From a virus (lineage: Duplodnaviria; Caudoviricetes), in the IMG/VR virus record IMGVR_UViG_3300048606_000052, positions 4,848 through 68,847 of that record: a stretch of DNA of 64,000 bases. One strand, written 5' to 3'. Numbering within the stretch: position 1 is the first letter of the stretch; every line of letters begins with the position of its first letter. A model generated the notes under the pieces. It ran no database searches. It was not told the origin of the DNA and worked only from the letters and a program-made list of their open reading frames with translations. Below are positions 914-29,503 of the stretch, piece by piece. A program made the position numbers and the translations under genes.

Positions 914-915
914 GC

Positions 916-2530: not shown

Positions 2531-2574
2531 CGCAGGCCGCGCCGCGGGCCGGTGGCGGCCTCCTTCCGGTCGTG

Positions 2575-2745: not shown

Positions 2746-2749
2746 GGTC

Positions 2750-4090: not shown

Positions 4091-4509
4091 CGGATCTTCT
4101 TGCCCTTCGGCATCCCGCCGGAGCGCTTGCCGCCGGACCGGCCGCCGCCGCGTGAGCTCAGCGGCGACTTGCCGGGCGCGAGGATGCCGCCGCCGCGGCT
4201 GCTCGACGACTTGCGGGCGCTGCTGCCGGCCTGGCGGGACTTGCGCGCCGGCGCACGCGTCGAGCGCTTCGGCGCCTTCGTGCGCTGGCTGCTCGGTTGC
4301 GTCCACGGCGCAATCGCGCGGCGTGCCTGGCGCTTCTCGCGACGCGTCGGCGGCTTCGGCGGGTTCATCACCCTGCGATGCGCCTCGCGCGACGCCGGCG
4401 AATCGCCGAAAAGGTGGCGCTTGCCCTCTTCGTGTTTCGTGCCCGCGAGCGGGTTGCGGACCGGGTCGGGGTCCTGCTCGGGCGGCTTCCTCCCGAAGCC
4501 CCACATCAC
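4087..4509 (-). CDS. Highly basic low-complexity protein
   Basis: R/K/S/G-rich; GTGA and ATGA coupling at both ends. Confidence 0.5.
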   Translation of the reverse strand: MMWGFGRKPPEQDPDPVRNPLAGTKHEEGKRHLFGDSPASREAHRRVMNPPKPPTRREKRQARRAIAPWTQPSSQRTKAPKRSTRAPARKSRQAGSSARKSSSSRGGGILAPGKSPLSSRGGGRSGGKRSGGMPKGKKIR

Positions 4510-4841
4510 GACCCGCCCTCTACCGGTTCGGCCGCGGCCATGAGAACGGCGTAGAGGCGCAGCCCGGCGATCATGCCGAGCTTGAGGTCTGGCAGGTCGT
4601 CGGGGTACGGAAACGGCGGCTCCGGTGACGACTCAGCGCGGTCAAGCGGCGCGTTCGTGCAGATTCGCTGAGCCTTGTAGGGCTCGTCCTGCTCGATGTA
4701 GTGCGCCACGCGGCCGATTACCCGCAGGGCGTCTTCGGTCGGCACGTTCCACCCCTTGAGCAGACGATAGGCAGCGGTCAGGCGATGCTCGGGGACCGGC
4801 TGGCCCAGTGCGTCATACAGGCCTGTGCTGTCGGCGCTCAT
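4506..4841 (-). CDS. Hypothetical protein
   Basis: Normal composition ORF, ATGA coupled. Confidence 0.6.
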   Translation of the reverse strand: MSADSTGLYDALGQPVPEHRLTAAYRLLKGWNVPTEDALRVIGRVAHYIEQDEPYKAQRICTNAPLDRAESSPEPPFPYPDDLPDLKLGMIAGLRLYAVLMAAAEPVEGGS

Positions 4842-5308
4842 GCGACCGTGGCGGTAGCGGCGGCCGTGACCTGGCGCGCTTTGCGCGCGGCGATCGACGC
4901 GACGTTGGAGCGCAGCGCGTTGAGGTAGGCGGGGCTGCACGTGTCGAGCTGCTCGAGGCCGTGCAGGTAGCCGCGGGTCGCGGGGTCAGGCTCGGCGTTG
5001 GCGAGCGTCTGTAGGTGCTCGCGCGCTTCGGCGACGCGGTCGGCTTCGGTCATCGCGTCGGGGTGCTGCGGCGCAGTGCCGGCGCGGCGGCGCTCGAGCA
5101 GCTCGCGGGCGGGCGCGGCCCACACGAGGTGCTTGGCGGCCTCGGCGACGTGCTCGCGCGCGATCTCGTCGAGGTCCTCGTCTGTGCGTGCGGCGCAGAA
5201 GCCCGGGTAGACGGCGCCCCCGAGGCCTTCGGCGCGGATGCTCTGCGCGGCCGTCGCGGCGATGGCGATATGCGGAACGGTCGGCTCGATCGTGGCGTTG
5301 TGGGGCAT
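4838..5308 (-). CDS. Hypothetical early protein
   Basis: First gene after promoter motif at 5327-5354; GAAGGA SD. Confidence 0.65.
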   Translation of the reverse strand: MPHNATIEPTVPHIAIAATAAQSIRAEGLGGAVYPGFCAARTDEDLDEIAREHVAEAAKHLVWAAPARELLERRRAGTAPQHPDAMTEADRVAEAREHLQTLANAEPDPATRGYLHGLEQLDTCSPAYLNALRSNVASIAARKARQVTAAATATVA

Positions 5309-5326
5309 GGTGCGGGTCCTTCCGGC

Positions 5327-5354
5327 GGGGTTGCTCTGTGCTACAGAGTGTAGC
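5327..5354 (-). promoter_or_regulatory. Recurrent promoter/operator with full palindrome GCTACA-GAG-TGTAGC (5340-5354) plus GCAACCCC
   Basis: Near-identical to copies at 11719-11745 and 13063-13090. Confidence 0.75.
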
Positions 5355-5427
5355 GCATGGCCGCAGTTAGCGCGAGTCCCCATTCGAGCGCCCGACGGCA
5401 AGGCCGCCGGGCGCTGGGACGAGGGGG

Positions 5428-5733
5428 TCAGGCGGACGTGCACCCGACGAACGCGGAGCCGAAGTACTGCGGCGGGTCCTCGTTCGACACGGTGACGCGC
5501 ATGTAGCACGTCTGCGCCCCCGGATGCTGGACGCTATCGCGGGAGAACACGAACGACCGCGAATACGCGTTCGGGTCAGACGCGGCGACCTGGCAGCCCG
5601 TGTAGAACGACGCGCACTCTTCCTGCGCGACGGCGGCTTGCACGTCATAGCTCGAGGCCGACGCCGCGGCGGCCGGCAGGACGAACGCGGCGGCTGCCGC
5701 GATCGGGACGACGATGAGAGTAAGACGCTTCAT
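5428..5733 (-). CDS. Small secreted protein with 4 Cys
   Basis: Sec signal MKRLTLIVVPIAAAAAFVLPAAAASA; AGGAG SD. Confidence 0.7.
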   Translation of the reverse strand: MKRLTLIVVPIAAAAAFVLPAAAASASSYDVQAAVAQEECASFYTGCQVAASDPNAYSRSFVFSRDSVQHPGAQTCYMRVTVSNEDPPQYFGSAFVGCTSA

Positions 5734-7484: not shown

Positions 7485-7744
7485 GCGCAGCCGCCCTCGT
7501 GGCCGAGCGGCTTGGTGCACGTGAGCCAGCCGTGGCCGCGCAGCTCGAGCCCTCTGCCGCATAGGCGCTCCGGTGCCGCGTCCGTGATGAGCGCTTCGGC
7601 GCAGGGCGCGCAGACGAGCGTGACGCTGTCCCCGTCCTCGACGGCGAGTTGCGCGCGGCCGTGGCAGCGATCGCACGGCGGGGCGTTCGGCGGCGGCGTG
7701 CCGAGCGTGATGTCACCCGAGGCGGTGAGAACGCGCAGGCTCAT
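7481..7744 (-). CDS. Small Zn-finger protein
   Basis: CDRC...CAPC and C...CTKPLGHEGGC. Confidence 0.6.
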   Translation of the reverse strand: MSLRVLTASGDITLGTPPPNAPPCDRCHGRAQLAVEDGDSVTLVCAPCAEALITDAAPERLCGRGLELRGHGWLTCTKPLGHEGGCA

Positions 7745-8004
7745 CGATCGACCATCCGGCCTCGCACGGCGGCGGCGAGGTCGACGTCGGTAGCAGTCGG
7801 CGCGGTCCCCGCGCCTCGGCGGGCCAGCGGGATGACGGTGCGCGGCCTCGACTCAGCGGACCGGATGACGTAGGCGCCCTGCGTGCGGATGCGTTCCACG
7901 CCCGAGCGCACCTCGGCCATCGTTCGGCGGTTGCGCGCCATGCTGCGCAGCGTCCATGCGTTGAGCGCGAGCGACACGAGCAGCAGCGCGAGCGTGACGG
8001 TCAT
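7741..8004 (-). CDS. N-terminally anchored membrane protein
   Basis: MTVTLALLLVSLALNAWTL then coiled coil. Confidence 0.6.
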   Translation of the reverse strand: MTVTLALLLVSLALNAWTLRSMARNRRTMAEVRSGVERIRTQGAYVIRSAESRPRTVIPLARRGAGTAPTATDVDLAAAVRGRMVDR

Positions 8005-8471
8005 CGCGGCAGCCCACGCTGGAGGACGTCGGCCTGGATGACGCGCGCCGCGGCGCGGTCGAGCACGTCGTCGGGCACGCCCTCGTCGCGCAGCGCGACG
8101 CGCAGCCGTCCGAGCAGCGCCGCGAGTTGCGCGTTCGGGCCGGGGGTCGTGACGTTGCCCATGCGCTCGAGCAGCTCCAGCCGGGTGCGCCAGAGCTCGC
8201 GCCACGTGCGGACTGCGGCGACGCGGGCGCCCTGCCCGGAGCTCGTCTGCGATGCCAGCAGCGTCAGGCGTTCCATTTGCGCGTCGAGCTGCTCGAGCGC
8301 GTCGCGTTGCAGCGCCGGCGACGAGGGCAGCTCGGCGGGTCGGCTGGCGCGGTGGTCGGCGATCATCGCGAGGACCTGCTCGAGGTCGAGGGCGAACTGC
8401 TCGGCGATCGTCGCCGGCGCCAGGCCGAGCGCCCACGCGGCGACGACGTCTGCGGGGCCGCTGCCGGCCAT
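8001..8471 (-). CDS. Hypothetical protein with N-terminal HTH-like segment
   Basis: VVAAWALGLAPATIAEQFALDLEQV resembles an HTH; remainder helical. Confidence 0.5.
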   Translation of the reverse strand: MAGSGPADVVAAWALGLAPATIAEQFALDLEQVLAMIADHRASRPAELPSSPALQRDALEQLDAQMERLTLLASQTSSGQGARVAAVRTWRELWRTRLELLERMGNVTTPGPNAQLAALLGRLRVALRDEGVPDDVLDRAAARVIQADVLQRGLPR

Positions 8472-11718: not shown

Positions 11719-11767
11719 GGGGTTGCTTGTGCTACAGAGTGTAGCGCCCCGCGGGGTCTCGGGTCAA
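11719..11767 (-). promoter_or_regulatory. Sigma70-type promoter TTGACC-N18-TACACT overlapped by palindrome GCTACA-N3-TGTAGC
   Basis: -35 at 11767-11762, -10 at 11743-11738, palindrome 11731-11745. Confidence 0.75.
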
Positions 11768-13020
11768 CCCGTTGAGACGGCTTTCTCGCCGCGTGCCGCC
11801 GCCTTCTGTCGTCGGCGCGGCCGCTTCGCTCGGTTGCCGGTCAGTCGCTCCCAGCGCAGAATTGCGGCGTCGCACCATGCGGGGTCTGAGTCGGCGGCGA
11901 ACGCGACGCGTTCGGTCTGCTCGGCGGCGACGAGGATCGTGCCCGAGCCGGCGAAGAGGTCGAGCACGCGCTCGCCGGGCACGGTCGAGTTCTCGAGCGC
12001 GCGGGTGAACAGCTCGACGGGCTTCTGGGCGTTGTGGATCCGCTCTTCGCCGGACGGGACGCGCGCGATGCGCCAGACGTTCGTGTCGAGGACCGGGCGC
12101 TGGCCGGGGTTGTCGACCGTCATGCGGGTGCGGCGCGGGATCGCGGCGGCGTAGAAGAGCAGCTCGTGCGTGTTCGCGTAGTTGTTGCCGAGGCCCGACC
12201 CGCCCTTGTCCCAGACGATCATGTTTTTGGGTGCCAGGCCGGTGCCCTTGCAGACCTCCCACCATGACGACCATGACCGCCAGTCGCAGCAGACGTACAG
12301 GTGCCCGAACGGGATGAGCGCGCGGGCGGCGGACTTCAGCGCGGCGCGGAAGAACGGGCGGACCATCTTGTCGTCGGCGACCTCGGCGGCGAGGCCGGTC
12401 GAGCTGCCGTAGATGGCGTAGGGCGGGTCGGTGACGACGAGATCGACGCGGCCGTTGGACAGCAGGCGATCGATGACGGCGGGCTCGGTCGAGTCGCCGC
12501 AGATGAGGCGGTGCGCGCCGAGTTCGACGAGGTCCCCGGGCTGGGTGATCGGGTCGTCGGGCAACTCGGCGAGCTCGTCGGACCCGACCGCGGACCCGCG
12601 CTCGCGCTTGCCCGGCTTCACGAGGCGATCGACGTCGTCGAGCGTGAAGCCCATGAGCGCCAGGCGGTCGGGCTGACGCTCGTCGCCGAGCAGCTCGCCG
12701 AGCGCGTCGCCGACCCAGTCGCCGGCGTGGTTGTTATCCCGCGCGGCCCACTCGACCCGCTGCTCAAGGGTGAGGTCGGCGAAGTACGCGAAGCAGGTCA
12801 TGCGGCCGATGCGCCGGCGAGCTCGCCACCGCTGCTCGCCGGCGATGATGAGCCCGTCGGGCTGGGCGATGACTGGCCGGGCTCGCATGAAGTCGTCGTC
12901 GGCGACCTGGCGCTCGAGGATCGCCATGCGCCGCGCGGTGATCTTCCGGGGGTTCGCGGGGTCGGGGTGCAGCTCGTCGAGGACGACTTCGACGAGCTCA
13001 AGAAGTGGCCGGTCGGTCAT
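11764..13020 (-). CDS. ParB-like domain fused to N6A/N4C DNA methyltransferase (beta class)
   Basis: N-terminal HPDPANPRKI...IIAGEQRWRA; HRLICGDS, TDPPY, HNAQKPVEL, DLFAGSGT. Confidence 0.9.
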   Translation of the reverse strand: MTDRPLLELVEVVLDELHPDPANPRKITARRMAILERQVADDDFMRARPVIAQPDGLIIAGEQRWRARRRIGRMTCFAYFADLTLEQRVEWAARDNNHAGDWVGDALGELLGDERQPDRLALMGFTLDDVDRLVKPGKRERGSAVGSDELAELPDDPITQPGDLVELGAHRLICGDSTEPAVIDRLLSNGRVDLVVTDPPYAIYGSSTGLAAEVADDKMVRPFFRAALKSAARALIPFGHLYVCCDWRSWSSWWEVCKGTGLAPKNMIVWDKGGSGLGNNYANTHELLFYAAAIPRRTRMTVDNPGQRPVLDTNVWRIARVPSGEERIHNAQKPVELFTRALENSTVPGERVLDLFAGSGTILVAAEQTERVAFAADSDPAWCDAAILRWERLTGNRAKRPRRRQKAAARGEKAVSTG

Positions 13021-13041
13021 GCGAATCTCCCTGCAAAACGC

Positions 13042-13090
13042 TTGTGCGGAGACTCCCGATGCGCTACACTCTGTAGCACAGAGCAACCCC
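13042..13090 (+). promoter_or_regulatory. Promoter TTGTGC-N17-TACACT with palindrome GCTACA-CTC-TGTAGC and GCAACCCC, driving the plus-strand island
   Basis: Reverse-orientation copy of the motif, between divergent genes. Confidence 0.75.
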
Positions 13091-13107
13091 CCGCCGGAAG
13101 GAACAGC

Positions 13108-13308
13108 ATGACCGCCCAGACCGCCCAGCCCAGCATCGCCCAGCCCGCCGCGCACCGCACGATCGCCGTCGTCACCGATAACGGCTCCCAGGCCCGCAAG
13201 CCGCCGCGCGCCGTCCGGAACCTCGGCCGCCGCAGCGCCCCGCAGCCCCGCCGGAACTGGCTCGACAAGGTCGAGACCATCGTGCACCTCGCGATCTGGA
13301 CCTCCTGA
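13108..13308 (+). CDS. Small early hypothetical protein
   Basis: GAAGGA SD; in frame within track ORF 12301-13308. Confidence 0.5.
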   Translation: MTAQTAQPSIAQPAAHRTIAVVTDNGSQARKPPRAVRNLGRRSAPQPRRNWLDKVETIVHLAIWTS

Positions 13309-13310
13309 CG

Positions 13311-13769
13311 ATGACCGCCACCGCCCCGCTCAACTACCTCGCCCCGTCCGTCGAGTCCACCAACGCGCTGCGCCGCCGCATCACGAAGATGGGCAGCAAG
13401 GCGACGACGACGAAGCTCGCGCAGCGCCTCGGCGTCGAGCGCGCCGAGCTCGAGCAGCGCCTCGCCGGCGACCCGGTGTTCGCGAAGACCCGCAGCGTCT
13501 GGCGCGTCGCGACCTACCCGCCCGTCGGCAGCGTCGTGCGCTGCGCCTACTGGGGGTTCGTCTTCCGCGTCGTGTCGCAGCAGCCCGGCCCGCTCGGGTC
13601 CGACGAGATCACGGTCGAGATGCTCGACCATCCGCGCACCGAGAACGCCTACCGGCCGGGTCATCCCGCGTGCACGCGGCCGAATCACGTCATCGGGTCC
13701 GTCTGGTCGCACGGCACCGCGCTCGGCGACCGCGACGAGATCCTCGAGCTGCCGGCCGCGGAGCGCTGA
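13311..13769 (+). CDS. Hypothetical protein with N-terminal HTH-like segment
   Basis: KATTTKLAQRLGVERAELEQRL. Confidence 0.6.
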   Translation: MTATAPLNYLAPSVESTNALRRRITKMGSKATTTKLAQRLGVERAELEQRLAGDPVFAKTRSVWRVATYPPVGSVVRCAYWGFVFRVVSQQPGPLGSDEITVEMLDHPRTENAYRPGHPACTRPNHVIGSVWSHGTALGDRDEILELPAAER

Positions 13770-13771
13770 CG

Positions 13772-13933
13772 ATGTCCAACGTCCTCGACTCCCGCGAGAT
13801 CGTCATCGACGTCGAGTCCGTCCCGGGCGCCGTAGCTATCGGCCTTCCCTCGGGCGACGTCGTGCTCGTTAGCCATGCCGATTGGCGCGCCGTCGCCGAC
13901 CGGCTCCCCGCGCCCGCCGTCACGCGCGGATAG
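13772..13933 (+). CDS. Small hypothetical protein
   Basis: MSNVLDSREIVIDVES...; operon position. Confidence 0.5.
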   Translation: MSNVLDSREIVIDVESVPGAVAIGLPSGDVVLVSHADWRAVADRLPAPAVTRG

Positions 13934-13975
13934 CGCACCCCCCGTCCCGACCCCGACCCTCGGAGGCCCTCGATC

Positions 13976-14701
13976 ATGCCGACCACCATCGCCCGCGGCG
14001 ACTCACTCGCCTACTTCCGCTCCATGCCGGCCGAAGAGCAGGACATGCTCGGGTGGCGCGTCGCCCGCGGCAACCTTCTGCCCGCGCCCTTCTGGCCCGG
14101 CGGACAGCTCATGCGCAAGCCGCTCGACGGCGACGACGGCGCCGTCGTGTTCTACAAGGTGGGCGCCCGCGGCACGCTCGGCGAGCCCGAGTCCGACGAG
14201 CCGCCGGCGGTCCTGCCGACCGGGGAGCTGCACGCCCGCGCCGACGCCTACCTGCGCACGCTCTGCGCCGGCTACCGCGTAGACCCGCCGTCCGTCGAGG
14301 ACGTCATGGCGTGGGCGTCCGTCGCGTTCGACGTCACCGAGGACCCGATCGACCCGCAGGAGTGGCTCGACGACTTCATCGACGCCCGCGAGACGGTCGC
14401 CGGCGAGCGCTGCCAGGCCATCTTCGGGCACCTCGACCGGTATGCCCGCCTCGACGACGCGACGGCGCAGGCCGTCGCCGACACCTCCGAGGACGCCCGC
14501 TTCGCGTCGCCGTGCGACCCGCGGGTGCTCGTCATGGTCACGGCGGAGGGCGGCGCGATCGTCGCCGACCTCGCCGGCCGCCACGCCGACGAACACGGCC
14601 CGCTGCTCAGCCGCCGCGAGCGCCGCCGCAAGCGCCGCCTCGAGCGCCGCACCTACTGCCGGGACCGCCGGCTGCACCGCGACGCCAGCCGCATCGCGTG
14701 A
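13976..14701 (+). CDS. Hypothetical protein, acidic core with basic C-terminal tail
   Basis: GGAGG SD; 241 aa. Confidence 0.65.
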   Translation: MPTTIARGDSLAYFRSMPAEEQDMLGWRVARGNLLPAPFWPGGQLMRKPLDGDDGAVVFYKVGARGTLGEPESDEPPAVLPTGELHARADAYLRTLCAGYRVDPPSVEDVMAWASVAFDVTEDPIDPQEWLDDFIDARETVAGERCQAIFGHLDRYARLDDATAQAVADTSEDARFASPCDPRVLVMVTAEGGAIVADLAGRHADEHGPLLSRRERRRKRRLERRTYCRDRRLHRDASRIA

Positions 14702-15231
14702 GCGACTACGCCCGCGCCGCGCTGCTCGCCGTCGTTGAGCACTGGCCCGGCCGCCTCGACGACCTCGCGCTGCGCGCCCAGCAGGAGGTCAACCCGACGC
14801 TCGGGCCCGGCATCGCCGGCGTGAGCGTGTGGCGCGCTCACGGCGAGGGGCTGCTGCTGCGGTTCCCGCATCGCACACTGGGCAGCGACCACCCGACGCT
14901 GGCGTTCACCGTGCAGCGCGCCTACCGGCGCTGGCACGCCGAGCCGCCCGAGCCGGACCCGACGCCGGATCACACGCGCGCCGCGCTGCGCGTCCTCGTC
15001 ACGCACTGGCCGGGCGTCCTCAACGGCGTCACGCTGACCGGCGCGCTTATGCGCTCCGCCGCCGCCGGCGTGCTCGTGCAGCAGGACGGCCGCACCCTGC
15101 AGGTCGGCTTCACCCGCGACGAGCTCGAGCACGCCGCCGACCCGGCCACCGCCGCGAACGTCGTAATGGCGTACCGGGCGTGGATGCTCGCGCGGGCGCA
15201 GCCCGAACCCCCGAACCCGCCCTACGCGTGA
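14698..15231 (+). CDS. Hypothetical protein made of two tandem ~85-aa homologous repeats
   Basis: DYARAALLAVVEHWPGRL...AYRRW..EPPEP vs DHTRAALRVLVTHWPGVL...AYRAW..QPEPP; GTGA overlap. Confidence 0.65.
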   Translation: MSDYARAALLAVVEHWPGRLDDLALRAQQEVNPTLGPGIAGVSVWRAHGEGLLLRFPHRTLGSDHPTLAFTVQRAYRRWHAEPPEPDPTPDHTRAALRVLVTHWPGVLNGVTLTGALMRSAAAGVLVQQDGRTLQVGFTRDELEHAADPATAANVVMAYRAWMLARAQPEPPNPPYA

Positions 15232-15374
15232 TCCCCGCCCGGATCATCGCCGCGCGCGACCTCGCCCACGCGCTGCTCGCCGGCTGGTTCGGCCGGGGAC
15301 CGCAGGCGGCCGCGATCATCGCCGCGACACTCGTCGTGCTGACCGCCGCCGTCCTGCTCAACGTCATCGGCTGA
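15228..15374 (+). CDS. Small membrane protein
   Basis: C-terminal AAAIIAATLVVLTAAVLLNVIG; GTGA overlap. Confidence 0.55.
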   Translation: MIPARIIAARDLAHALLAGWFGRGPQAAAIIAATLVVLTAAVLLNVIG

Positions 15375-15452
15375 GCCCCACCCGGCCACGGGCACCCGCC
15401 CGGGAGCCGGGCACCCACCGGCATCACCGTTATGTGATCGCCCGCACGCACG

Positions 15453-15477
15453 GCTACTCTCTGAGGCACAAGCCAAC
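15453..15477 (+). promoter_or_regulatory. Degenerate copy of promoter motif upstream of the translocase/nuclease cluster
   Basis: GCTACTCTCTGAGGCACAAGCCAAC, 21/25 identical to the 10775 copy. Confidence 0.5.
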
Positions 15478-15540
15478 GCGAGGCGGCGCCGCGCCCTACC
15501 CCGGGACACGACGCCGCCCGCCCATAGGAGGCCGTCTCCC

Positions 15541-15807
15541 ATGCCCCACACACCCTCGCAGACCCCCCCGACGCTGATCGCCGGGAAGACCGGCAGCGGC
15601 AAGGGATCTGTGCTCTGGCACCCCCTGCTCTGGCCTTGCCGGACGCGCGGCAGGCCGCCACTTTCGTGGCGCGGTCGCACGATGCGGCGGCGCCACCGGC
15701 TAGGCTCAGGGCTTCGCCTGCCTAGCCGCCGCCGATCGCGGACGGAGGTTGAGCCGCTCGAGCAGCAGGTGGGTTGGGTCGAGGGGGGTGGTGTCGATGC
15801 GGAGTAG
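15541..15807 (+). CDS. Short ORF carrying an isolated TraB/FtsK-type Walker A segment (possible remnant)
   Basis: LIAGKTGSGKGSVLW; strong AGGAGG SD; remainder has no ATPase motifs. Confidence 0.4.
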   Translation: MPHTPSQTPPTLIAGKTGSGKGSVLWHPLLWPCRTRGRPPLSWRGRTMRRRHRLGSGLRLPSRRRSRTEVEPLEQQVGWVEGGGVDAE

Positions 15808-16174
15808 CGCGCGTCGTGGTCGCGAGGTTGTGCCCGTTCGTGGTCAGGTGGTTGAGCCGGTGCGGGTGCCGGGTGCCGAGCTTGATATTGAGGCGTGGGC
15901 GCGTCCGATTGGGCATCCGGTGCCCTACGGTGGCGGGCCGCCGCAGACGGTGCGGATTGAGGTTGTGCAGGTGCCGGCGGCGCCGGTTGCGCCTCCTGTT
16001 GACGTGGGGGTGCGGACGGGTCCGTCGTGGTTGACGGCGGCGGGGTTCATGGCCGTTGTGTGTGTGCTGCTGGCGATCGGTGTTGGGCTCTGGCTGGGTG
16101 GGGCCGCGCCGTGGCAGACGGACGCGCAGCAGCAGCGGCATTCGACGCCGGCGCATCATCGGGCGGTGCGGTGA
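15797..16174 (+). CDS. Pro/Val-rich single-pass membrane protein
   Basis: TM WLTAAGFMAVVCVLLAIGVGLWLGG; atypical T-ending codons. Confidence 0.6.
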   Translation: MRSSARRGREVVPVRGQVVEPVRVPGAELDIEAWARPIGHPVPYGGGPPQTVRIEVVQVPAAPVAPPVDVGVRTGPSWLTAAGFMAVVCVLLAIGVGLWLGGAAPWQTDAQQQRHSTPAHHRAVR

Positions 16175-16272
16175 TGCGCTGCGATGAGGGCGGCTGCGGG
16201 ATGTTCGTGTTGGTCGTCGTGCTGGCCGCGTTGGCGGTCAGCGGGCGGCACCTTCGAGCTGGGAGGTCGTGA
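16171..16272 (+). CDS. Very small membrane peptide
   Basis: CGMFVLVVVLAALAVSG; GTGA overlaps both ends. Confidence 0.45.
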   Translation: MMRCDEGGCGMFVLVVVLAALAVSGRHLRAGRS

Positions 16273-16586
16273 TGCCGGATCTGTTTCGTCGTCTGATTGC
16301 GTTGGTGGTGCTGCTCGTCGGGCTGCACAGTCCCGCGCCGGCGAAGTCGCCGCTGGCACCGATGTACGTCCCGGGGCCGCTGAACAGGTTCGTGCCGAAG
16401 CCGTCGTGCGCGACGATCGTGGACCCGAAGGACAAGCGGGCGCCGTGGCGGTACCTGGCCGCATGCGCGACGACACACGGCCTCGTCGTGAAGGGGCCGT
16501 TCCCGACACGCAAGGCGGCGACGGGCGCGGCGGACGCGGTCTATGACGCCGAGGTCGCGGCGCAGGGCGGGGAGCTGAGGCCCTGA
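16269..16586 (+). CDS. Secreted or anchored protein (2 Cys)
   Basis: FRRLIALVVLLVGLHSPAPA signal-like; GGGAGG SD. Confidence 0.6.
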   Translation: MMPDLFRRLIALVVLLVGLHSPAPAKSPLAPMYVPGPLNRFVPKPSCATIVDPKDKRAPWRYLAACATTHGLVVKGPFPTRKAATGAADAVYDAEVAAQGGELRP

Positions 16587-17107
16587 TGGGACCGAAGGGT
16601 CGCCTGGTCGTGCTCGTGCTCGTCGGCGTGTTCGCGTGGTCTGTGCGGTGGGCCGAGACGAACAGTCCCGCGGTGCTCGAGCGTCAGGCGCGCGCGGCGC
16701 AGGCGGGCGACTGCCGGCACGACGCGATGGGGCGCGTCGTGCCGATCCGGGTGAGCGTGTCGAAGTACCCGGAGAACTGGCGGCATATCGTGGACGCCAG
16801 GGCCGGGCGGAACACCGGGCCCGACGGCGTGAGCGTCGTCAACGACGGGCTGAAGTGGCCGACGGTGCTGCGAAAGAACGATGTCGGCGAAGAGGCCCGA
16901 CGGCGCGCCGGCGAGAAGATGAGCGGCCTACCGTCGAAGCCCGGCAAGGCGCGCGATGAGTACCCGCCGGCGGAAGGCCGCGCGACGGACGCCGCGGACT
17001 TCCGGTACGTCGATCGCGACACGAACTCGCGGCAGGGCGCGAGCATGGGCGGGCAGCTCCGCCGCTACTGCAAGGGCCAGCTCTACCAGCTCGTCGCAGT
17101 CCCGTAG
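16586..17107 (+). CDS. Membrane-anchored NucA/NucB-family deoxyribonuclease
   Basis: N-terminal TM; SKYPENWRHIVDA...RRR...LPSKPGKARDEYPPA...FRYVDRDTNSRQGASMGGQL..Y matches Bacillus NucA/NucB (PTKPGFDRDEWPMA...VRYVSSSDNRGAGSWVGN). Confidence 0.85.
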   Translation: MGPKGRLVVLVLVGVFAWSVRWAETNSPAVLERQARAAQAGDCRHDAMGRVVPIRVSVSKYPENWRHIVDARAGRNTGPDGVSVVNDGLKWPTVLRKNDVGEEARRRAGEKMSGLPSKPGKARDEYPPAEGRATDAADFRYVDRDTNSRQGASMGGQLRRYCKGQLYQLVAVP

Positions 17108-17110
17108 ATC

Positions 17111-17539
17111 GTGCCCGCTGCGACGTCGCCGAAGGCGGAGCGTGCGCGCGGCCGGGCGGCGGAGCGGCGCGCGCACGACGCTGCGCAGGACGCGCACGCG
17201 CTCGCGCTGAGCATCGCGCCCGACCGGGACGTTGAGGGCGCGGTCGCGCAGTCCGCGGGGGAGGCGAACAACGCGTGGCACGAGTGCCGCCAGAACGTGC
17301 GCAAGTGCGACGAGGCGGCCAGCGTCCCCAGCTACGCCGACCGCTACGAAAAGAAGGACGCGGCCGAGGACGCCAGGACCTACGCGCGGCTGGCCGAGCG
17401 CGCCGCTGACTCCGCCGAAGAGCACCTCCAGAGCGCGCAGGCCGCCGCGGACCGAATCGAAGCGCAGGACCGCGAGCTCGCCGCGGCGGGCATGGACTTC
17501 CGCTCGACGCTCGCCGGGTGGACTAGGCGGTCGCGGTGA
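17111..17539 (+). CDS. Coiled-coil Ala/Glu-rich protein
   Basis: Helical composition; GTGA coupled to translocase. Confidence 0.6.
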   Translation: MPAATSPKAERARGRAAERRAHDAAQDAHALALSIAPDRDVEGAVAQSAGEANNAWHECRQNVRKCDEAASVPSYADRYEKKDAAEDARTYARLAERAADSAEEHLQSAQAAADRIEAQDRELAAAGMDFRSTLAGWTRRSR

Positions 17540-19122
17540 ACATCGGCGACTGGGTCGTCGTCCCGATCGTCTGGCTAGTCCAGACGATCGTGATCCTCGT
17601 CTTGTGGGCGTGCTGGCATCCGCTGCGGGTCCTGGCGTTCGCGGCGCTCGTCGCGGTCTGGCAGGTCCTCGAGCTGCTCGGCTTCGAGGTGAGCCTGTAC
17701 GACACGGTCGGGCTCGTGCTCGACTTCGTCGTCTTCGCGTGCGTGTGGTGGGCGGCCGCCGGCGTCGCGGGATGGTTCCGCCGGCCGAAGCGCAAGTGGG
17801 CGCAGAAGGTCGTCATCGCCGCCGGCGCGTGGGAGCTCGTCATCGGTTCGTGGTGGCGGCCCTTCTGGCGCGCCCGCTACGTCTACGGCCGCAACTGGCA
17901 GGAGTCAATGGAGCAGGCGTTTCTCACGATCCCGCGGCCGCGGCGCATCGACAAGGTGCCGCGCATCCGCAAGGTCGTCGTCGGACCGTTCGGCGACACG
18001 GTCTGGGTCAAGATGCTCAAGGGCCAGACCGTCGAGCAGTATGAGCGCAAGGCCGAGGCGTTCGCCGGCGACTTCGGGATGCAGAGCGTCCGGGTGTACC
18101 CGCGCTACACCGAGCCCGGGCGGTGGCCGCTGCCGGGGATGGTGACGGTCACAGACGAGGACGGCACCGAGCGCCGGCGGCCGGGCATCGGCAAGCGCAA
18201 GGGCGGCGTGCGGGTGCCCGGGCAGCTCGTGCTCGAGTGCAGCACAAAGGACGTCCTCACAGAGCCGCTGAAGCCGATCCCGATCCCGGCCAGCGTCGCC
18301 GACGTGGACTTCGGCGCGGTGCCGGTCGGCAAGACCGAGGCCGGCGAGACATGGACGCTGAAGGTCCACGGCAACCACATTTTGTGCGCCGGCGTCACGG
18401 GCTCGGGCAAGGGGTCGATTATGTGGTCGGTCCTCAAGGGGCTGGCGCCGGCGATCGAGGCCGGGCTCGTGCAGGTCTGGGCGATCGACCCGAAGGGCGG
18501 CATGGAGCTCTTCCGCGGCCGTCCGCTGTACGCGCGCTATTGCGACACGACGCCGGCGGCGATGAACGCGATGCTCGGCGAGCTCGTCGTGAAGGTCGAC
18601 AAGCGCACCCAGAAGTACAAGCCGCAGCAGCGCGAGCACGTCCCGACCGTCGAGGACCCGCTGATTCTGTGCGTCATCGACGAGTGCTCGAAGCTCTTCG
18701 TCCCGCTGTCGGCGCTCAAGGCCGACAAGGACGTCGCGAATGAGGCGAAGGCCCGCGTCACGCTGCTCGTCAACCAGGGCCGCGCGGTCGGCGTGTCGAT
18801 GCTGATGCTGCTGCAGAACCCGCGCAAAGAAGTCATCGATATGCGCGACGAGATCCCGGACCGGATCGCGCTGCGGCTGCTGTCGGCGCAGTACGGCGAC
18901 ATGATGTTTTGGCAGGGCGCCGCGGCGTCCGGCATCCGCTGCGACCGGATCCTACGCTCGCAGCCGGGCCGTGGTTTCGCTTGGAATGACAAGCGGCGCG
19001 CCATCATCGCGGTGCGCGCGGCCTACGTTTCGGACGACGAGATCGCCGAACTCGTCGAGGGGTACGCGCCCGGGCCGCGCGGCGAGGACCTACTCGACGA
19101 GATCGAAGCCAGCGCCACCTAG
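17536..19122 (+). CDS. FtsK/SpoIIIE-family DNA translocase, actinomycete TraB/AICE type
   Basis: N-terminal TM block; HILCAGVTGSGKGS (Walker A), IDPKGGMEL, VIDE (Walker B), QGRAVGV, LQNPRKE, VRAAYVSDDEI. Confidence 0.92.
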   Translation: MNIGDWVVVPIVWLVQTIVILVLWACWHPLRVLAFAALVAVWQVLELLGFEVSLYDTVGLVLDFVVFACVWWAAAGVAGWFRRPKRKWAQKVVIAAGAWELVIGSWWRPFWRARYVYGRNWQESMEQAFLTIPRPRRIDKVPRIRKVVVGPFGDTVWVKMLKGQTVEQYERKAEAFAGDFGMQSVRVYPRYTEPGRWPLPGMVTVTDEDGTERRRPGIGKRKGGVRVPGQLVLECSTKDVLTEPLKPIPIPASVADVDFGAVPVGKTEAGETWTLKVHGNHILCAGVTGSGKGSIMWSVLKGLAPAIEAGLVQVWAIDPKGGMELFRGRPLYARYCDTTPAAMNAMLGELVVKVDKRTQKYKPQQREHVPTVEDPLILCVIDECSKLFVPLSALKADKDVANEAKARVTLLVNQGRAVGVSMLMLLQNPRKEVIDMRDEIPDRIALRLLSAQYGDMMFWQGAAASGIRCDRILRSQPGRGFAWNDKRRAIIAVRAAYVSDDEIAELVEGYAPGPRGEDLLDEIEASAT

Positions 19123-19215
19123 CGTCGGCGGCGACCCGAGGGGGGCCCAGCCGCCGAGCGACTGTGCCCCCCGCTGACCCGTTCGGCTGCCGACGGGACC
19201 TAGGCGCCAGCGATG

Positions 19216-19383
19216 CTAGCCGCGCCACCAACGGCCCGGCAAGCCGGTGAGCCACGCCCACAAGCGCCGCAGCGGTCCCGGCGGGTGAAGGCGCTCCTGC
19301 TCGTGCCGCGCGGCCGTGCGCTCGGCTTCGTCGGCGATCCTCCAGCCGCGCTCGAAACGCTCGTGCTCGCCAGGCTCACCCAT
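19216..19383 (-). CDS. Small protein with Trp/Arg amphipathic C-terminus
   Basis: MGEPGEHERFERGW...LRRLWAWLTG. Confidence 0.45.
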   Translation of the reverse strand: MGEPGEHERFERGWRIADEAERTAARHEQERLHPPGPLRRLWAWLTGLPGRWWRG

Positions 19384-19503
19384 CGCGCTGCGGACTCTAG
19401 CCCCGCTGAGCCTTGCGCGCCGCCTTCGCGGCCTTCCGCCGGCGAGTGCGGCGCTCTGAGCTCGTCGTCGCACGAGTCGCGGGCGAATAAAACGCGCGAA
19501 TAA

Positions 19504-20097
19504 TCACGCGGTCGCCGGCGCGGGCTCATCCCACGTCAGGCGAACCTCGGTGCGCCGGCGGCCGCCGAGGACCTCGAGCCAGGTCAGCAGGTGCCGGTCG
19601 TTGTCCTCGTCGAGCCACCCCGCGGTGTAGGTGCGGTGGTCGTAGTCGATCGCGCGGTCAGGGTCCGGGCGGCCGGTGAGGGCGTCGCCGAGCGACTTGA
19701 CCGCGAGCCAGAGGTTCGGGCTGTCGGCGCGCTTGCCGCCTGGCGTGGTCACGAGGACGTGCGCGAAGACTGGCTCGAGTTCGCCGGCGCCGTCCACGCT
19801 GCGGATCGGGCGGTCAAGGTCGAGCGCGTCGAGCGCCCGCGCGAAGCGGCCCTGCCATTCCGTCTTGACGGCGTGCGCGTCCTTCCAATGCGACCGCAGC
19901 TCGTTGGTGTTCATCGTCGGCGGCGCGTCGTCGATCGTGAACCGCGCGCGCCGGCAGACGGTGCCCGGCGGTGGCGGCAGCACGCCGAGGTCGCGCAGCA
20001 GACGGCGCGACAGGTCGCCGAGCGATCCGGGCGTCTCAGCCAGGCGTGCCTCGACGTCGGCGATCGATACGAACGGGCCGTGGCCGATGACTCTCAT
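19504..20097 (-). CDS. rusA: RusA-like Holliday junction resolvase
   Basis: PPTMN...HW, KRADSPNLWLAVKSLGDAL, GWLDEDND. Confidence 0.7.
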   Translation of the reverse strand: MRVIGHGPFVSIADVEARLAETPGSLGDLSRRLLRDLGVLPPPPGTVCRRARFTIDDAPPTMNTNELRSHWKDAHAVKTEWQGRFARALDALDLDRPIRSVDGAGELEPVFAHVLVTTPGGKRADSPNLWLAVKSLGDALTGRPDPDRAIDYDHRTYTAGWLDEDNDRHLLTWLEVLGGRRRTEVRLTWDEPAPATA

Positions 20098-20315
20098 GGC
20101 CTGCGGCGGCGGCGCTGTACCCGCGGGCCGCTGAGCCGATCGGCCTCACGCCAGAGCTGCTCGACGCGCTGCCGGCGCTCAACCCACCGCACCCACCCGG
20201 CAGCGGCGAGCGCGACGCCGACGAGCAGCAGCGCGCCGAACCATCCCTGGCCATGCACGACCGCGGCCGCGTAGGCGACCAAGACGAGCGCCAGCAGGAT
20301 GCGCACGGTCCTCAC
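20094..20315 (-). CDS. Two-TM membrane protein
   Basis: Two hydrophobic spans, basic tail. Confidence 0.6.
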   Translation of the reverse strand: MRTVRILLALVLVAYAAAVVHGQGWFGALLLVGVALAAAGWVRWVERRQRVEQLWREADRLSGPRVQRRRRRP

Positions 20316-20608
20316 GCGACGGCCTCGACGGGGTGTTCGCCGGCGCGGCGGGTGCGCGGCTCGAGGTCCTCGACGTCGGCGTCAGGGTCGAGGAAGTGAA
20401 AGAGCGCCAGCGCGGCATCGGTCGGGCTGCCGGCGATACCCTGCACGCGCTCGGGCCCGCGCCAGGCGATCCAGGCCCACTCGGGCTCCCAGCCGGCGGC
20501 CGGCCCCTCGGGCGGCCACGCGACGATGTCGATCCAGCCGCCGTGGTGCATGGTGCCCCACGCTGCGCAGTAGTCGCGGCGGCGGCGCAGCTTCGGCTTG
20601 CGGGTCAT
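20312..20608 (-). CDS. Trp-rich hypothetical protein
   Basis: ATGA coupled. Confidence 0.55.
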   Translation of the reverse strand: MTRKPKLRRRRDYCAAWGTMHHGGWIDIVAWPPEGPAAGWEPEWAWIAWRGPERVQGIAGSPTDAALALFHFLDPDADVEDLEPRTRRAGEHPVEAVA

Positions 20609-26679: not shown

Positions 26680-27340
26680 GAGCGAAGCCCTCCCCCGCCG
26701 CCGCGGTGTCATCGGGTGGCCGCCATGAGCAGCGATAGCACGCGACGATCGTTTCGACGCTCGCGTGCTCGGCGAGGCTGTAGAGCTCGTCTTCGCCGCA
26801 GCCGGGGCACAACGGCCAGCCGTCCGCGCGGTACGCGACGTAGGGGGTCTTCCTCTCGGCCAGCGCGACGCCGGCCTGCTCGTCGGCGACGTTTAGCGTG
26901 GCGGTCGCCGAGGCGATGAGCGCGAGCAGCTCTTCGCGTTCGGCGGCGCCGACGCGTGCGGCGACGGCACCGATGCCGGCGGTCAGGGTGCGCAGCGCGT
27001 CGTTTTGTGCGCGTGCGATCGTCGCGACCGCTTCGCTGCGACGGCACGCCTCGAGCGCTTCCTCGAGCGCTTCACGAAGGGCTTCGGTCTGGCATCGCTC
27101 GTCGGGGTACGGTCCGGCCCAGTCGCGGACGATGAGCCTCGTGGTGGGAACTGCGACGCCCTCGTCGCTGACCATGCGGTCCGGGCCAACCGTGCCGTGA
27201 AGGCGCACGACGACCTCGGCGCCGTCCGGGAAGACGGGGCCGTCGATGACGGCGCGGTGGATGGTGTAGCGGACGCACTGCGGGTCATCCTGCTCGGTCT
27301 GCGCGGCCTCAACTTCGCCGGGGGTCGGTGCGTCAGCCAT
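26672..27340 (-). CDS. Protein with coiled coil and C-terminal zinc ribbon
   Basis: CPGCGED...CYRCSW. Confidence 0.65.
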   Translation of the reverse strand: MADAPTPGEVEAAQTEQDDPQCVRYTIHRAVIDGPVFPDGAEVVVRLHGTVGPDRMVSDEGVAVPTTRLIVRDWAGPYPDERCQTEALREALEEALEACRRSEAVATIARAQNDALRTLTAGIGAVAARVGAAEREELLALIASATATLNVADEQAGVALAERKTPYVAYRADGWPLCPGCGEDELYSLAEHASVETIVACYRCSWRPPDDTAAAGEGFAHG

Positions 27341-29255
27341 GCGGGTCTACCTCCGAGCTCGCGAGTAGGTCGAGCTGTCCGGCGTGCGCGAGGTCGCGCC
27401 GGCGCTCGGTGGCTTCGTCGGCTGCGCGACGTCGCGCGACCTCCTGCGCGAGAACGCGCGCGACCGGGGTGCCGACCGGGAAGCCGGCCCAGAAGGCGAT
27501 GCGGGCCCGGGCGACGGCGGCGTGCGCGTCGTCCTGCTCTATGCCGACGAAGCGCATGCCGGCCAGGACCGCGGCGCAGCCCGTCGAGCCCGAGCCGGCG
27601 AACGGGTCGAGCACGACGCCGCCGGGCTGCGTGACGAGGCGGACAAGCCAGCCCATGAGATCGATCGGCTTGACCGTCGGGTGGCGGTTGCGGACCTCCC
27701 GCGGCTGCCAGTTCTCCCGGGGGCAGGCTCGGTCCAGCTTCGGCGTTTGCATCCCGACCCACTGCGCGTCGTCGGTACGTCCGGCGATCGGCAACCCGTC
27801 GAGGCCTGCCTCGCGCTCGAGCGGGCTGGCCTTTCCTGAGTAAAAGAAGCGAGACGCGCCGCCGGCGTCGGCGTAGAAGGGGCTGGCGCGGCCTTCGCGC
27901 CCGGCGCTGGCACCGTAGGCATTGGCGCTCGAGCCATCCTGCAGGGCGGGTTCGGTGCCCATGACCTGCGCCGACGCGCCAGCGTCGCCGCTGAGGTCGT
28001 CGAGCAGCGCGACGGGGCAGCCGATCTCGCACCGCCACGCTTCGATCGTTTCGAGGCCGTCGGCCTCGGCATAGGTGAAGTCCTCGCCGCGCTGGGAGGC
28101 CTTGTTGAATATCCCGCCGTCGCGGGCGCCCTCGGGAATGTTGCGGCGCACGCTGACGCCGGTCGGGACGCGCCGCTGCCCGACGAGCTCGCAGCCCGGG
28201 GCGTGCACGAGCGCGACGTTCGCCGGCCAGCGGCCCATGCGGTTCGCGCGTTCGATGCTCTCGGCCTGCGCCGCGGCGTTGCGCTCGGCGTCGCCGTTGG
28301 CTTGCAGCTCGGCGCCGACGATGCCGCGCCGGCGCGCGGGGTCTGAGCCGTCGTGCTTGAGCTGCTCGCCGCCTGTCTTGATGCGGCACGCGTCGATGTT
28401 CAGCGCGCCGGTGCCGGTCGCTAGGACCTGCGCCTCTACGGTGCCACGGAACGGCTTGCGGGCGACAGCGATCGGCTCGTGCGCGGGCTTGAGCGCCGTG
28501 CCCCAGCCCTCCCATTGCTCGGCCTCGGTCGTCGCGGGTGCGGTGATCGGCGTCGGGCCTTCCCGCGGTTCCCAGGCGTCGTCGTTCATCCGACCCAGCG
28601 CGCCCGGATGCGCTCGGCCGTAGCCGACGACTTCGCGTTCGGCGCCGGCGGCCGCGTCGATCGCCTTGCCGATGTTGCGCGACTTCGGCCAGCCCGAGCC
28701 GTAGACCCAGTCGACCTCGGCGCCGACGTCGCCGTTGAGCGTCAGGACGCGGTCGCGGATCTCGAAGCCGGCGTCCTCGACGCCGCACGCCAGGCGGTGA
28801 TAGGTGCGGGTGCCGCCGAACGCGAGCAGGAACCCGCCGGGCTTGAGGACGCGCAGGCACGCGCGCGCCCACCGCTCAACGGAGGCCTGGAATGCCCGCG
28901 ATTCGCCCAGCGATGAGCGAACGCCGCTGCCCGGCAGGTATCCCCATTCGGTGCCGGTCGGCTTATCCCAGCCGGTGTTCATGAAGCTGATCCCGTAGGG
29001 CGGGTCCGTTACGACAGCGTCGATCGACTCCGCAGGCATCCGCTCAAGGACCTCGACGCAATCGCCGCACTCGACGTGCCACCGCTCGACGTCGCCGGGG
29101 TCGAGCGGCGGTGGCAGGTCGGGCAGGGCGCGGGGGCTGCGAACGATCGCGCCGCATGGGCACGAGCGGAGCACGAGCAGCGGCGGTTCTGTGTGCGTGA
29201 CGGCGTGCGCGTGCTCGCACCCGGGGTCGCCGCCTTCCCACGGGCCGGCGCTCAC
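27333..29255 (-). CDS. N6A/N4C DNA methyltransferase (beta class, long variable insert)
   Basis: GDCVEVL, VTDPPYG, LRVLKPGG, HPTVKPIDLM, LDPFAGSGST. Confidence 0.92.
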   Translation of the reverse strand: MSAGPWEGGDPGCEHAHAVTHTEPPLLVLRSCPCGAIVRSPRALPDLPPPLDPGDVERWHVECGDCVEVLERMPAESIDAVVTDPPYGISFMNTGWDKPTGTEWGYLPGSGVRSSLGESRAFQASVERWARACLRVLKPGGFLLAFGGTRTYHRLACGVEDAGFEIRDRVLTLNGDVGAEVDWVYGSGWPKSRNIGKAIDAAAGAEREVVGYGRAHPGALGRMNDDAWEPREGPTPITAPATTEAEQWEGWGTALKPAHEPIAVARKPFRGTVEAQVLATGTGALNIDACRIKTGGEQLKHDGSDPARRRGIVGAELQANGDAERNAAAQAESIERANRMGRWPANVALVHAPGCELVGQRRVPTGVSVRRNIPEGARDGGIFNKASQRGEDFTYAEADGLETIEAWRCEIGCPVALLDDLSGDAGASAQVMGTEPALQDGSSANAYGASAGREGRASPFYADAGGASRFFYSGKASPLEREAGLDGLPIAGRTDDAQWVGMQTPKLDRACPRENWQPREVRNRHPTVKPIDLMGWLVRLVTQPGGVVLDPFAGSGSTGCAAVLAGMRFVGIEQDDAHAAVARARIAFWAGFPVGTPVARVLAQEVARRRAADEATERRRDLAHAGQLDLLASSEVDPHG

Positions 29256-29503
29256 GTGGGCTCCGACTCGAAGATGGCGCCCTCTTCGGTGGTGTAGGCG
29301 GCGAGGACGTGCACGAGCGCCTCGGGCGGCACAGACGCCAAGCAACGCGGCCCGTCGGGCGTGCTGACGAGCAGCGTCAGCGCGCCGCCGTCGTACTCGA
29401 CGATCACGTCGGCGGGCTCGAAGGTCCAATCCTGGCCGGGCTCGCCGGCGCCGGGCGGCCACCATCCGCACTCGGCACTAGCAGGTTGTGTCACGGAGCT
29501 CAC
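29252..29503 (-). CDS. Small hypothetical protein
   Basis: AGGAG SD before GTG 29503. Confidence 0.55.
   Translation of the reverse strand: MSSVTQPASAECGWWPPGAGEPGQDWTFEPADVIVEYDGGALTLLVSTPDGPRCLASVPPEALVHVLAAYTTEEGAIFESEPT

Follow-up and report, generated by a model that had tools for sequence, protein, structure and literature searches.

We describe here a single plus-strand operon from an uncultured soil phage with a contractile tail, at positions 15453-19122 of a 64,000-nt stretch of DNA (the window) that covers bases 4848-68847 of the 68,847-bp IMG/VR record IMGVR_UViG_3300048606_000052. The operon brings together a predicted NucA/NucB-fold DNase and a predicted FtsK/SpoIIIE-type translocase for double-stranded DNA (dsDNA), whose nearest cellular relatives are encoded in the integrative and conjugative elements of actinomycetes (AICEs). 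This cassette is a real and conserved variant of a known theme, and an undescribed one. The sites and open reading frames (ORFs) of the operon, some with predicted transmembrane (TM) helices, are as follows.

15453-15467, plus strand: promoter/operator-like motif GCTACTCTCTGAGGC at the operon head, by direct reading
15541-15807, plus strand: operon leader with an 88-codon 'Walker-A-like' mini-ORF of doubtful coding status
15698-15727, plus strand: invariant 30-nt palindrome GGCTAGGC-N14-GCCTAGCC in the leader, unique in the window
15797-16174, plus strand: small membrane protein of about 125 aa with one C-terminal TM helix; the ATG start at 15797 was picked by alignment with the related locus L006
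16171-16272, plus strand: doubtful 33-codon hydrophobic ORF in the gap between genes (hydrophobic residues 4-30)
16269-16586, plus strand: small exported or anchored protein, 105 aa, with a signal-peptide-like N-terminus, a Pro/Ala-rich linker and a domain of about 60 aa with two Cys
16586-17107, plus strand: predicted NucA/NucB-fold DNase, 173 aa, with an N-terminal TM or signal helix, by profile, fold and invariant residues
17111-17539, plus strand: predicted cytoplasmic three-helix-bundle protein, 142 aa, by its model; translationally coupled to the ATPase gene
17536-19122, plus strand: predicted AICE-type FtsK/SpoIIIE dsDNA translocase, 528 aa, by Pfam, PHROG, tree, architecture and motifs
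19140-19172, no strand assigned: GC-rich hairpin after the ATPase stop codon, a possible terminator (GGGGGGC ... GCCCCCC stem, by direct reading)

The DNase, the translocase and the small proteins

Start and stop codons along the operon overlap or nearly touch, with overlaps of 4 nt between the 17111-17539 gene and the ATPase gene and of 1 nt between the 16269-16586 gene and the nuclease gene. A first-pass annotation, made from the sequence alone, had described a coupled plus-strand operon ending in a NucA/NucB nuclease and an FtsK/SpoIIIE ATPase, and the coordinates and overlaps, together with the family and fold matches given below, confirm that description.

Taken alone, the window nuclease scored 19.5 bits against Pfam PF14040 NucA_NucB, short of the gathering score of 23.8 bits; 30 of 31 members of its family, which comprises 37 metagenomic proteins, matched PF14040 at E up to 0.1 (best E 1.6e-5). 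A profile built from 31 homologues found Bacillus licheniformis NucB (5OMT) with an E of 6.7e-15 over almost the whole mature enzyme. The structural model (predicted local distance difference test score, pLDDT, 92.8) consists of a helix at residues 3-26 and a long N-terminal helix pair, then a globular domain, and a Foldseek search of the PDB with this model returned NucB entries only (9FJ7, 5OMT and 6EJS; E about 3e-7; target-normalised TM-score 0.81-0.87; root-mean-square deviation 1.9-2.7 Å). Four residues that are invariant in the 31 sequences, H67, D124, E125 and N147, align to H53, D93, E94 and N117 of B. licheniformis NucB, all essential by mutagenesis (PMC5758888), and C43 and C162 are nearly invariant as well. 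The nuclease that the first-pass annotation had named is in this way well supported as a NucA/NucB-fold protein, predicted to be a Mg/Mn DNase with all four essential residues.

Its N-terminal helix is preceded by basic residues. Cellular homologues, 27-43% identical, come almost entirely from metagenome-assembled genomes of Solirubrobacterales and other Thermoleophilia. Since those inspected, from Solirubrobacterales, have the same pair of Cys and are provided with lipobox or Sec signal peptides, we infer that the catalytic domain of the phage enzyme faces outward from the membrane. No homologue was found in any of 50,697 records of isolated phages. Compared with NucA and NucB of Bacillus, the phage protein has the same fold and the same four essential residues, and a small gene follows it as nin follows nucA. 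Identity is 27-28%, however, and the phage enzyme differs by an extra N-terminal helix pair, a different Cys pair and linkage to a DNA motor; its downstream neighbour is modelled as a three-helix bundle, and Nin (4MQD) is not among the fold matches listed for it. In B. subtilis, NucA is bound to the membrane and works on DNA at the surface of the cell.

The ATPase passes the Pfam PF01580 FtsK_SpoIIIE cut-off (30.9 bits; cut-off 24) and matches phrog_1358 (2e-26). It is laid out as a hydrophobic, TM-containing region within residues 1-80, a linker, an ATPase domain at residues 236-512 and a 16-aa tail, and most of the AICE proteins compared are built alike, with a linker between 2-4 N-terminal TM segments and a single ATPase domain, which a short tail follows. 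Invariant in 27 phage and AICE relatives are Walker A (G289-S294), Walker B (D382/E383), R416, Q427, R430 and K431, and the stretches that the first-pass annotation had quoted as signatures of conjugative elements (IDPKGGMEL, QGRA, LQxPRKE and VRAAYVSD) are present. By these conserved motifs, a membrane-anchored and catalytically intact dsDNA translocase is a well-supported prediction.

A search of a 5.8-billion-protein collection showed a sharp break, in which 19 metagenomic relatives of the ATPase (43-100% identical) were followed by a large family at 33-45% from Nonomuraea, Nocardiopsis, Streptosporangium and others. The two members of this family that we looked up are followed by RepSA, HTH_17 and Phage_integrase in precomputed Pfam annotation, and are textbook AICEs. 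The best plasmid matches, with 34-37% identity over 77-78% of the length, were to records from Nonomuraea, Micromonospora (pMR2) and Mycobacterium avium; the two of these records that carry annotation have a replication initiator next and, close by, an integrase with an excisionase in pMR2 and a recombinase in M. avium. Among isolated phages the best identity was only 24-27% over about 40% of the length.

We then placed the ATPase domain in a tree of 53 rows (IQ-TREE, LG+G4, quick search, three poorly matching rows left out), with branch support from the Shimodaira-Hasegawa-like approximate likelihood ratio test (SH-aLRT) only and no bootstraps; the tree leaves the placement of P0056 and the monophyly of each subgroup without resolution. 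Phage and AICE (pMR2 type) ATPases formed one clade (SH-aLRT 99), sister to TraB of the Streptomyces plasmid pSVH1 plus a 525-aa Solirubrobacter protein (SH-aLRT 92). Chromosomal FtsK fell separately, together with gp190 of Mycobacterium phage Pound (SH-aLRT 99), and EccC formed the outgroup. By tree position the ATPase is of the conjugative TraB/Tra type and groups with RepSA-linked AICE Tra proteins, not with EccC of type VII secretion systems (T7SSs) or with chromosomal FtsK, in agreement with the actinomycete conjugative origin first read from its motifs.

The likeness to AICE Tra of the pMR2 type extends to identity (35-42% over about 80% of the length for the nearest cellular relatives), architecture and tree clade. 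The settings differ: an AICE gene is followed by RepSA, Xis and Int, whereas the phage gene lies in a myophage in which no integrase was found, preceded by a DNase gene and by genes for proteins unlike the small AICE proteins. With the TraB/clt/Spd system of Streptomyces plasmids the phage motor shares, besides its sister position in the tree, the character of a membrane hexameric dsDNA pump encoded with small membrane proteins. The pSVH1 TraB protein, however, has 772 aa and a 118-aa region after the ATPase domain, where the phage protein has 16 residues. In pSVH1 TraB that C-terminal region holds a winged helix, which is reported to read 8-bp repeats in clt. The TraB-type label of the first-pass annotation does not extend to an equivalog of plasmid TraB, as the protein scores 19.7 bits against NCBIfam plasmid_TraB (NF041214; cut-off 800). 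The phage tail leaves no room for such a winged helix. PADLOC gave only generic ATPase-level matches, to SspH and mad8.

The other products of the operon are small and poorly represented in databases. The 15797-16174 protein is 64% identical to the product of L006 9104-9475 (E 2e-46), and its TM segment (residues 90-122 of a 141-aa reading) is also present in the L006 and L012 counterparts; family searches gave no match for it. The 16269-16586 protein has positional homologues in L006, L012, L013 and L014 that keep the same layout in two sequence types; its family held 8 clusters only among 1.84 billion representatives, and it had no Pfam, PHROG, NCBIfam or PADLOC match. A match of this protein to a 1538-aa repeat protein (E 8e-4) was set aside as looking like low-complexity noise. 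For the 33-codon ORF no counterpart was called in L006, where the flanking genes overlap. It is well supported that the operon encodes one to three small proteins predicted to be membrane-bound or exported; of the three membrane or secreted proteins in the first-pass annotation, those of 15797-16174 (TM helix) and 16269-16586 (signal-like N-terminus) stand, and that of 16171-16272 is a doubtful ORF.

The 142-aa protein had been annotated as a coiled coil. Its model (pLDDT 87.8) is instead a helical bundle and not a long coiled coil, with helices at residues 7-34, 44-70, 78-125 and 130-141, the last a short basic C-terminal helix, and the protein has no TM segment. Ten homologues share a C-D-x-A motif and the basic C-terminal tail, and a word-seeded search found 6 homologues only. 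The bundle had no significant fold match in PDB or BFVD, no Atlas match and no informative family match. No similarity was detected between the operon's small proteins and the small AICE proteins encoded beside Tra genes, in a comparison that did not extend to Spd proteins.

Linkage of the two genes, the phage and its host

We compared related loci using gene calls based on third-codon-position G+C (GC3) and blastp, as tblastx at 72% G+C, the value of the window, gives matches in every frame. Nuclease and ATPase genes are neighbours in all nine sequenced loci of the phage clade (L004, L005, L006, L008, L011, L012, L013, L014 and the window), and two further contigs, known by gene list, have the same gene sizes as the cassette. 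At least 16 of the 19 motor clusters match a DNase cluster in the length of the source contig, and the two genes were only ever found together within the clade. The neighbourhood holds in L004, which shares almost nothing else with the window near the cassette, and in L011, where the order has changed to bundle protein, nuclease, ATPase. In L013 an extra 129-aa gene (5177-5566) lies between the nuclease gene and that of the helical protein, which still adjoins the ATPase gene. At the other end of the L013 cassette, an MT-A70 methyltransferase gene (7554-8102) on the same strand overlaps the translocase gene at its end.

Conservation of the cassette among the phages of the clade reaches down to 43-47% identity, and L004 and L005 come from genomes of 86 and 73 kb that are complete and have direct terminal repeats. 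Compared with L006 and L014, third-position substitutions were in excess in the nuclease gene (23/24/50 by codon position), the ATPase gene (34/25/85; the protein is 91% identical in L006) and the TM-protein gene (21/21/42), a sign of purifying selection. Outside the phages, an FtsK-like sequence lay within 8 kb of a cellular nuclease gene at 1 of 67 loci, and no NucB-like gene was seen in the AICE loci inspected. Because 66 of the 67 cellular loci have no nearby FtsK-like gene and the inspected AICE loci no NucB-like one, the nuclease-ATPase pairing is, by these neighbourhoods, specific to the phage clade and a stable invention of the lineage. The gene-neighbourhood comparison proposed in the first-pass annotation thus found the nuclease always with the ATPase within the clade.

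The same annotation had noted that the AICE partners RepSA and integrase are absent. For the integrase this stands, in that family searches found neither tyrosine integrase PF00589 nor large serine recombinase PF07508 in the record or in the L004 and L005 genomes. RepSA (PF20199) was likewise not found in the record or the two complete relatives, in a search that was weak, as the control genomes were also silent.

The identity of the phage as a myophage comes from PHROG matches of window proteins. These genes, and two that precede the operon in its plus-strand island, are:

43308-44705, minus strand: baseplate wedge (PHROG match)
49751-51586, minus strand: tape measure (PHROG match)
52698-54140, minus strand: tail sheath (PHROG match)
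61643-63346, minus strand: prohead protease (PHROG match)
13311-13769, plus strand: first gene of the island, with a weak AbiEi-like helix-turn-helix (HTH) match (E 0.003)
14698-15231, plus strand: 177-aa soluble protein with an internal duplication, conserved in L006, no family match

In GC3 frame analysis nearly all window genes are on the minus strand, and the main exception is the plus-strand island at 13311-19122, whose genes have a GC3 of 0.89-0.97, slightly higher than most phage genes. The first-pass annotation had called this the only plus-strand island; it is the main one, with a few short and doubtful plus-strand calls elsewhere (e.g. 45559-45930). A perfect copy of the operator palindrome lies at 13063-13077, upstream of the 13311-13769 gene, whose product may be a regulator of the island. 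The duplication in the gene of the 177-aa protein is a 65-nt repeat (14708-14772 and 14972-15036, 77% identical). Two large DNA methyltransferases are encoded at 11764-13287 and 27333-29471 (both minus strand), one of them fused to a ParB-like N-terminal domain, and genes for DUF5131 and HARE-HTH proteins lie close by in relatives; heavy modification of the phage DNA is probable. Past the prohead protease (63346-64000) and in record bases 1-4847 we saw no ORF of terminase or portal size, by rough GC3 gene calls and with no family search for terminase or portal. As no such ORF was called and the relatives' genomes have 73-86 kb, the 68.8-kb record may be truncated despite its completeness estimate of 97%.

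Ku-like end-binding genes also occur in these phages. The window has one at 29963-30976 (minus strand), some kb from the translocase gene, as does L012 (8653-9846), and in Mycobacterium phage Pound Ku (L084 1270-2118) is two genes away from an FtsK-like gene. Ku and FtsK-family genes may be a recurrent association in actinophages. The FtsK-like translocases of Mycobacterium phages such as Pound (Omegavirus) resemble ours as annotated phage FtsK-family genes near a Ku-like gene; the Pound protein differs in that it is 26% identical over 38% of the length, has no TM segment and groups with chromosomal FtsK.

The host is probably a member of the Solirubrobacterales (Thermoleophilia), as judged from the nuclease homologues and from the phage mIHF protein (916-1245, minus strand). 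The latter shares 59-80% identity with its counterpart in each of the 61 Solirubrobacterales genomes searched; against 101 genomes of class Actinomycetes the values were 29-40%, apart from two outliers of 57-60%. Few genomes of the order have an AICE-type motor (1-2 of 151), the other matches being chromosomal FtsK. Some of the genomes counted here are unpublished (G041 and G062 in the order; G161, G178, G184 and G186 in the class), and none of the conclusions rests on them. Cultured Solirubrobacterales are non-mycelial rods. Since the host probably belongs to this order, spread along hyphae or through cross-walls is a poor model here, and the Streptomyces mycelium frame of the first-pass annotation does not fit the host signal. 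Our literature search found no described phage of Solirubrobacterales.

Promoter motif, leader and palindrome

Minus-strand genes at 1279, 10761 and 25691 are preceded by GCCTCAnAnTGTAGC, of which the motif at the operon head, GCTACTCTCTGAGGC, is the reverse orientation. In its palindromic form this promoter/operator motif matches the window 8 times, against 0.8 expected. A motif common to the operon and to genes of the replication/modification region fits early expression of the operon, and exclusion genes of other lytic phages are expressed early. A sigma-70 scan found no promoter. Downstream of the ATPase gene, the 19140-19172 hairpin (78-nt fold, -43.9 kcal/mol, z -1.96) was not called by a terminator scan, because it has no T run.

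Between the motif and the first small-protein gene lies a leader of about 340 nt with an AGGAGG Shine-Dalgarno sequence at about 15527. A separate earlier claim had been a Walker-A mini-ORF at 15541-15807. An ORF containing TGSGKGS is also found in L006, L013 and L014, but the Walker-A block is not kept in L004, L005 and L012, and a second 'motif' of the mini-ORF is the 30-nt palindrome 15698-15727 read as codons. Since its substitutions by codon position (14/13/12 and 13/14/15 against L006 and L014) show no third-position excess, we judge the region to be probably a non-coding leader, despite AGGAGG and an ATG. An 18-residue Walker-A match upstream was also considered as a second, decayed motor gene; this was rejected, as no other motor part is present and the region has no codon-position signal.

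The palindrome occurs once in the window, with no match in 100 shuffles. Each of the six relatives that cover the region (L004, L005, L006, L012, L013 and L014) has a single copy, which lies upstream of the cassette and on the same strand, and none of 115 other loci compared has it. Across the seven sequences its bases are identical except at three loop or inner-stem positions, while the flanks diverge. Its predicted fold has -33.5 kcal/mol (z -1.74), and RNAalifold on the leader gave a conserved stem with no covariation in the palindrome, because the palindrome is invariant. An Rfam scan of 15300-16300 found no match. A search with the palindrome pattern returned two known relatives only in IMG/VR and no match in the JGI metagenome collection. 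The palindrome may serve as an operator, as a hairpin for RNA control or as a transfer site, and an operator or RNA control site is more likely than a transfer origin. A repeat search of 13000-20600 found no clt-like array of 8-bp repeats.

Related systems and possible functions

Two published systems come close to this arrangement. Pathria et al. (2012; PMC3357382) described a 'DNA translocation operon' in Bacillus phage 0305phi8-36, where it is dispensable in the laboratory, and in SPO1. Like the operon described here, it belongs to lytic myophages and is conjugation-like, with a nuclease-type enzyme, a translocase ATPase and membrane anchors. Its enzyme is, however, relaxase-like and its ATPase, of the VirD4/TraG-like AAA_10 kind, has no TM helices, which is single-stranded DNA logic, whereas our cassette has an FtsK/TraB-type dsDNA motor with TM helices and a predicted exported, non-specific DNase. 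In the transjugation system of Thermus thermophilus (TdtA-NurA of ICEth1; PMC5365140), a membrane hexameric ATPase of the FtsK/HerA superfamily pushes dsDNA from the donor, and its gene directly follows a nuclease gene. There the nuclease is a 377-aa NurA-family protein, the ATPase is HerA-like and the element is an integrating island, not a phage. We know of no export signal in this NurA. FtsK-like genes are routinely listed in papers on Streptomyces phages and other actinophages, without a function, and our search turned up no paper connecting NucB with FtsK in a phage. The first-pass claim of an undescribed system is narrowed accordingly: the pairing with NucB is undescribed in the literature found, but FtsK-like genes are routine in actinophages and a phage DNA translocation operon was published in 2012.

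We tentatively favour a reading in which the operon is a conserved, separately promoted unit of this myophage lineage whose motor pushes dsDNA out and whose tethered DNase cuts it outside, destroying rival or host DNA. A hexameric motor would sit on the cytoplasmic face of the infected cell's membrane and push dsDNA outward, the DNase would cut the exported DNA on the outer face, and the unit would expel and destroy competing DNA, be it superinfecting or other foreign linear DNA or the host chromosome. This is how an outward-pushing motor that adjoins a DNase waiting outside is most simply read. Motors of the SpoIIIE/FtsK family export DNA from the cell they sit in. Such export is described for TraB and TdtA (PMC4447253, PMC5365140). 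Several points weigh against this proposal. Export of host DNA would waste nucleotides that a phage normally recycles, operon synteny can persist by descent or co-regulation alone, and the charges flanking the DNase helix are not decisive for a topology taken from sequence features only. We know of no described pump-and-degrade machine; every characterised motor relative known to us serves transfer and not destruction; and injected phage DNA is, to our knowledge, not known to be accessible to a membrane ring motor. The comparable 0305phi8-36 operon could be deleted without a laboratory phenotype (PMC3357382).

Conjugation-like spread, in which the motor would export phage dsDNA into a touching neighbour, with the palindrome as a clt-like cis site and the small membrane proteins as Spd-like helpers, would permit infection without virion or receptor, and we consider it unlikely but a genuine contender. 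The characterised relatives of the motor all move dsDNA between cells, those closest to it are AICE Tra proteins, small membrane proteins are co-transcribed with it, and each relative that covers the region has, along with the cassette, the unique and invariant palindrome. The clt sites of Streptomyces plasmids contain inverted repeats. Reviews (PMC4447253, PMC2440964) name the Tra protein as the chief factor in transfer. DNA hand-over is nevertheless hard to reconcile with an outward, non-specific DNase on the donor surface, a DNase that always accompanies the motor. The host lineage, moreover, is probably non-mycelial and has few AICE-type motors, the motor lacks a winged-helix DNA reader, the 8-bp repeat array was not found, the small proteins are unrelated to those of AICEs, and a palindrome between promoter and first gene is more simply an operator. 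A version that finds work for the DNase, in which a phage without a found integrase would pass its own dsDNA genome to touching cells through the captured motor, with the palindrome as transfer site and the surface DNase destroying other DNA at the junction, strikes us as improbable. Equally, the two enzymes might serve independent functions under one promoter, the DNase clearing or scavenging extracellular DNA (matrix, nucleotides, virion release) and the motor acting separately, for instance on replicating or concatemeric phage DNA at the membrane; this too we hold to be unlikely while giving it some weight. Streptococcal prophages are known to carry secreted DNases, and soil is rich in extracellular DNA. 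NucB degrades biofilm DNA (PMC5758888), and many actinophages have FtsK-like genes without a DNase. Against separate roles speak the tight coupling of start and stop codons, the absence within the clade of either gene alone, and an adjacency that outlasts full turnover of the flanks (L004) and local rearrangement (L011).

Two further explanations have little to recommend them. In combining a nuclease with an FtsK-type ATPase, small membrane proteins and a small helical one, the operon recalls T7SSb loci, and the ATPase has weak NCBIfam EssC/EccC matches (E about 4e-6); it might on these grounds power export of a nuclease toxin for attack on neighbours, with the small helical protein as chaperone or immunity protein, as EssC does for EsaD/EsaE/EsaG. 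We regard this as very unlikely, given that the matches score about 25 bits against equivalog cut-offs of 346-778, that the phage protein has one ATPase domain where EssC/EccC have three in tandem, that it lies far from EccC in the tree, and that the DNase has an export or anchor helix of its own and so needs no special secretion system. The operon might finally be the decaying, functionless remnant of an AICE once inserted in a phage or prophage, in keeping with a motor that groups with AICE motors and with the slightly raised GC3 of the island. The evidence argues against this, and we give it almost no credence: neither an integrase nor att-like ends were found (the RepSA search being empty with silent controls), complete, terminally redundant phage genomes contain the cassette, every catalytic motif has stayed intact, and the genes are under purifying selection and conserved down to the low identities given above. 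The independent AICE remnant that the first-pass annotation had considered is not what we found.

Should motor and DNase work together, the phage would encode a machine for passing DNA across the envelope of the cell that it infects, leading either to destruction of rival DNA or to spread without virions, neither of which is known from any phage. It would also provide a first function for the FtsK-like genes annotated in many actinophages. Solirubrobacterales are abundant in soil, and the cassette marks an uncultured myophage lineage that probably infects this group. Even on an ordinary reading, a phage without a found integrase has captured, and long retained, the conjugation motor of an AICE.

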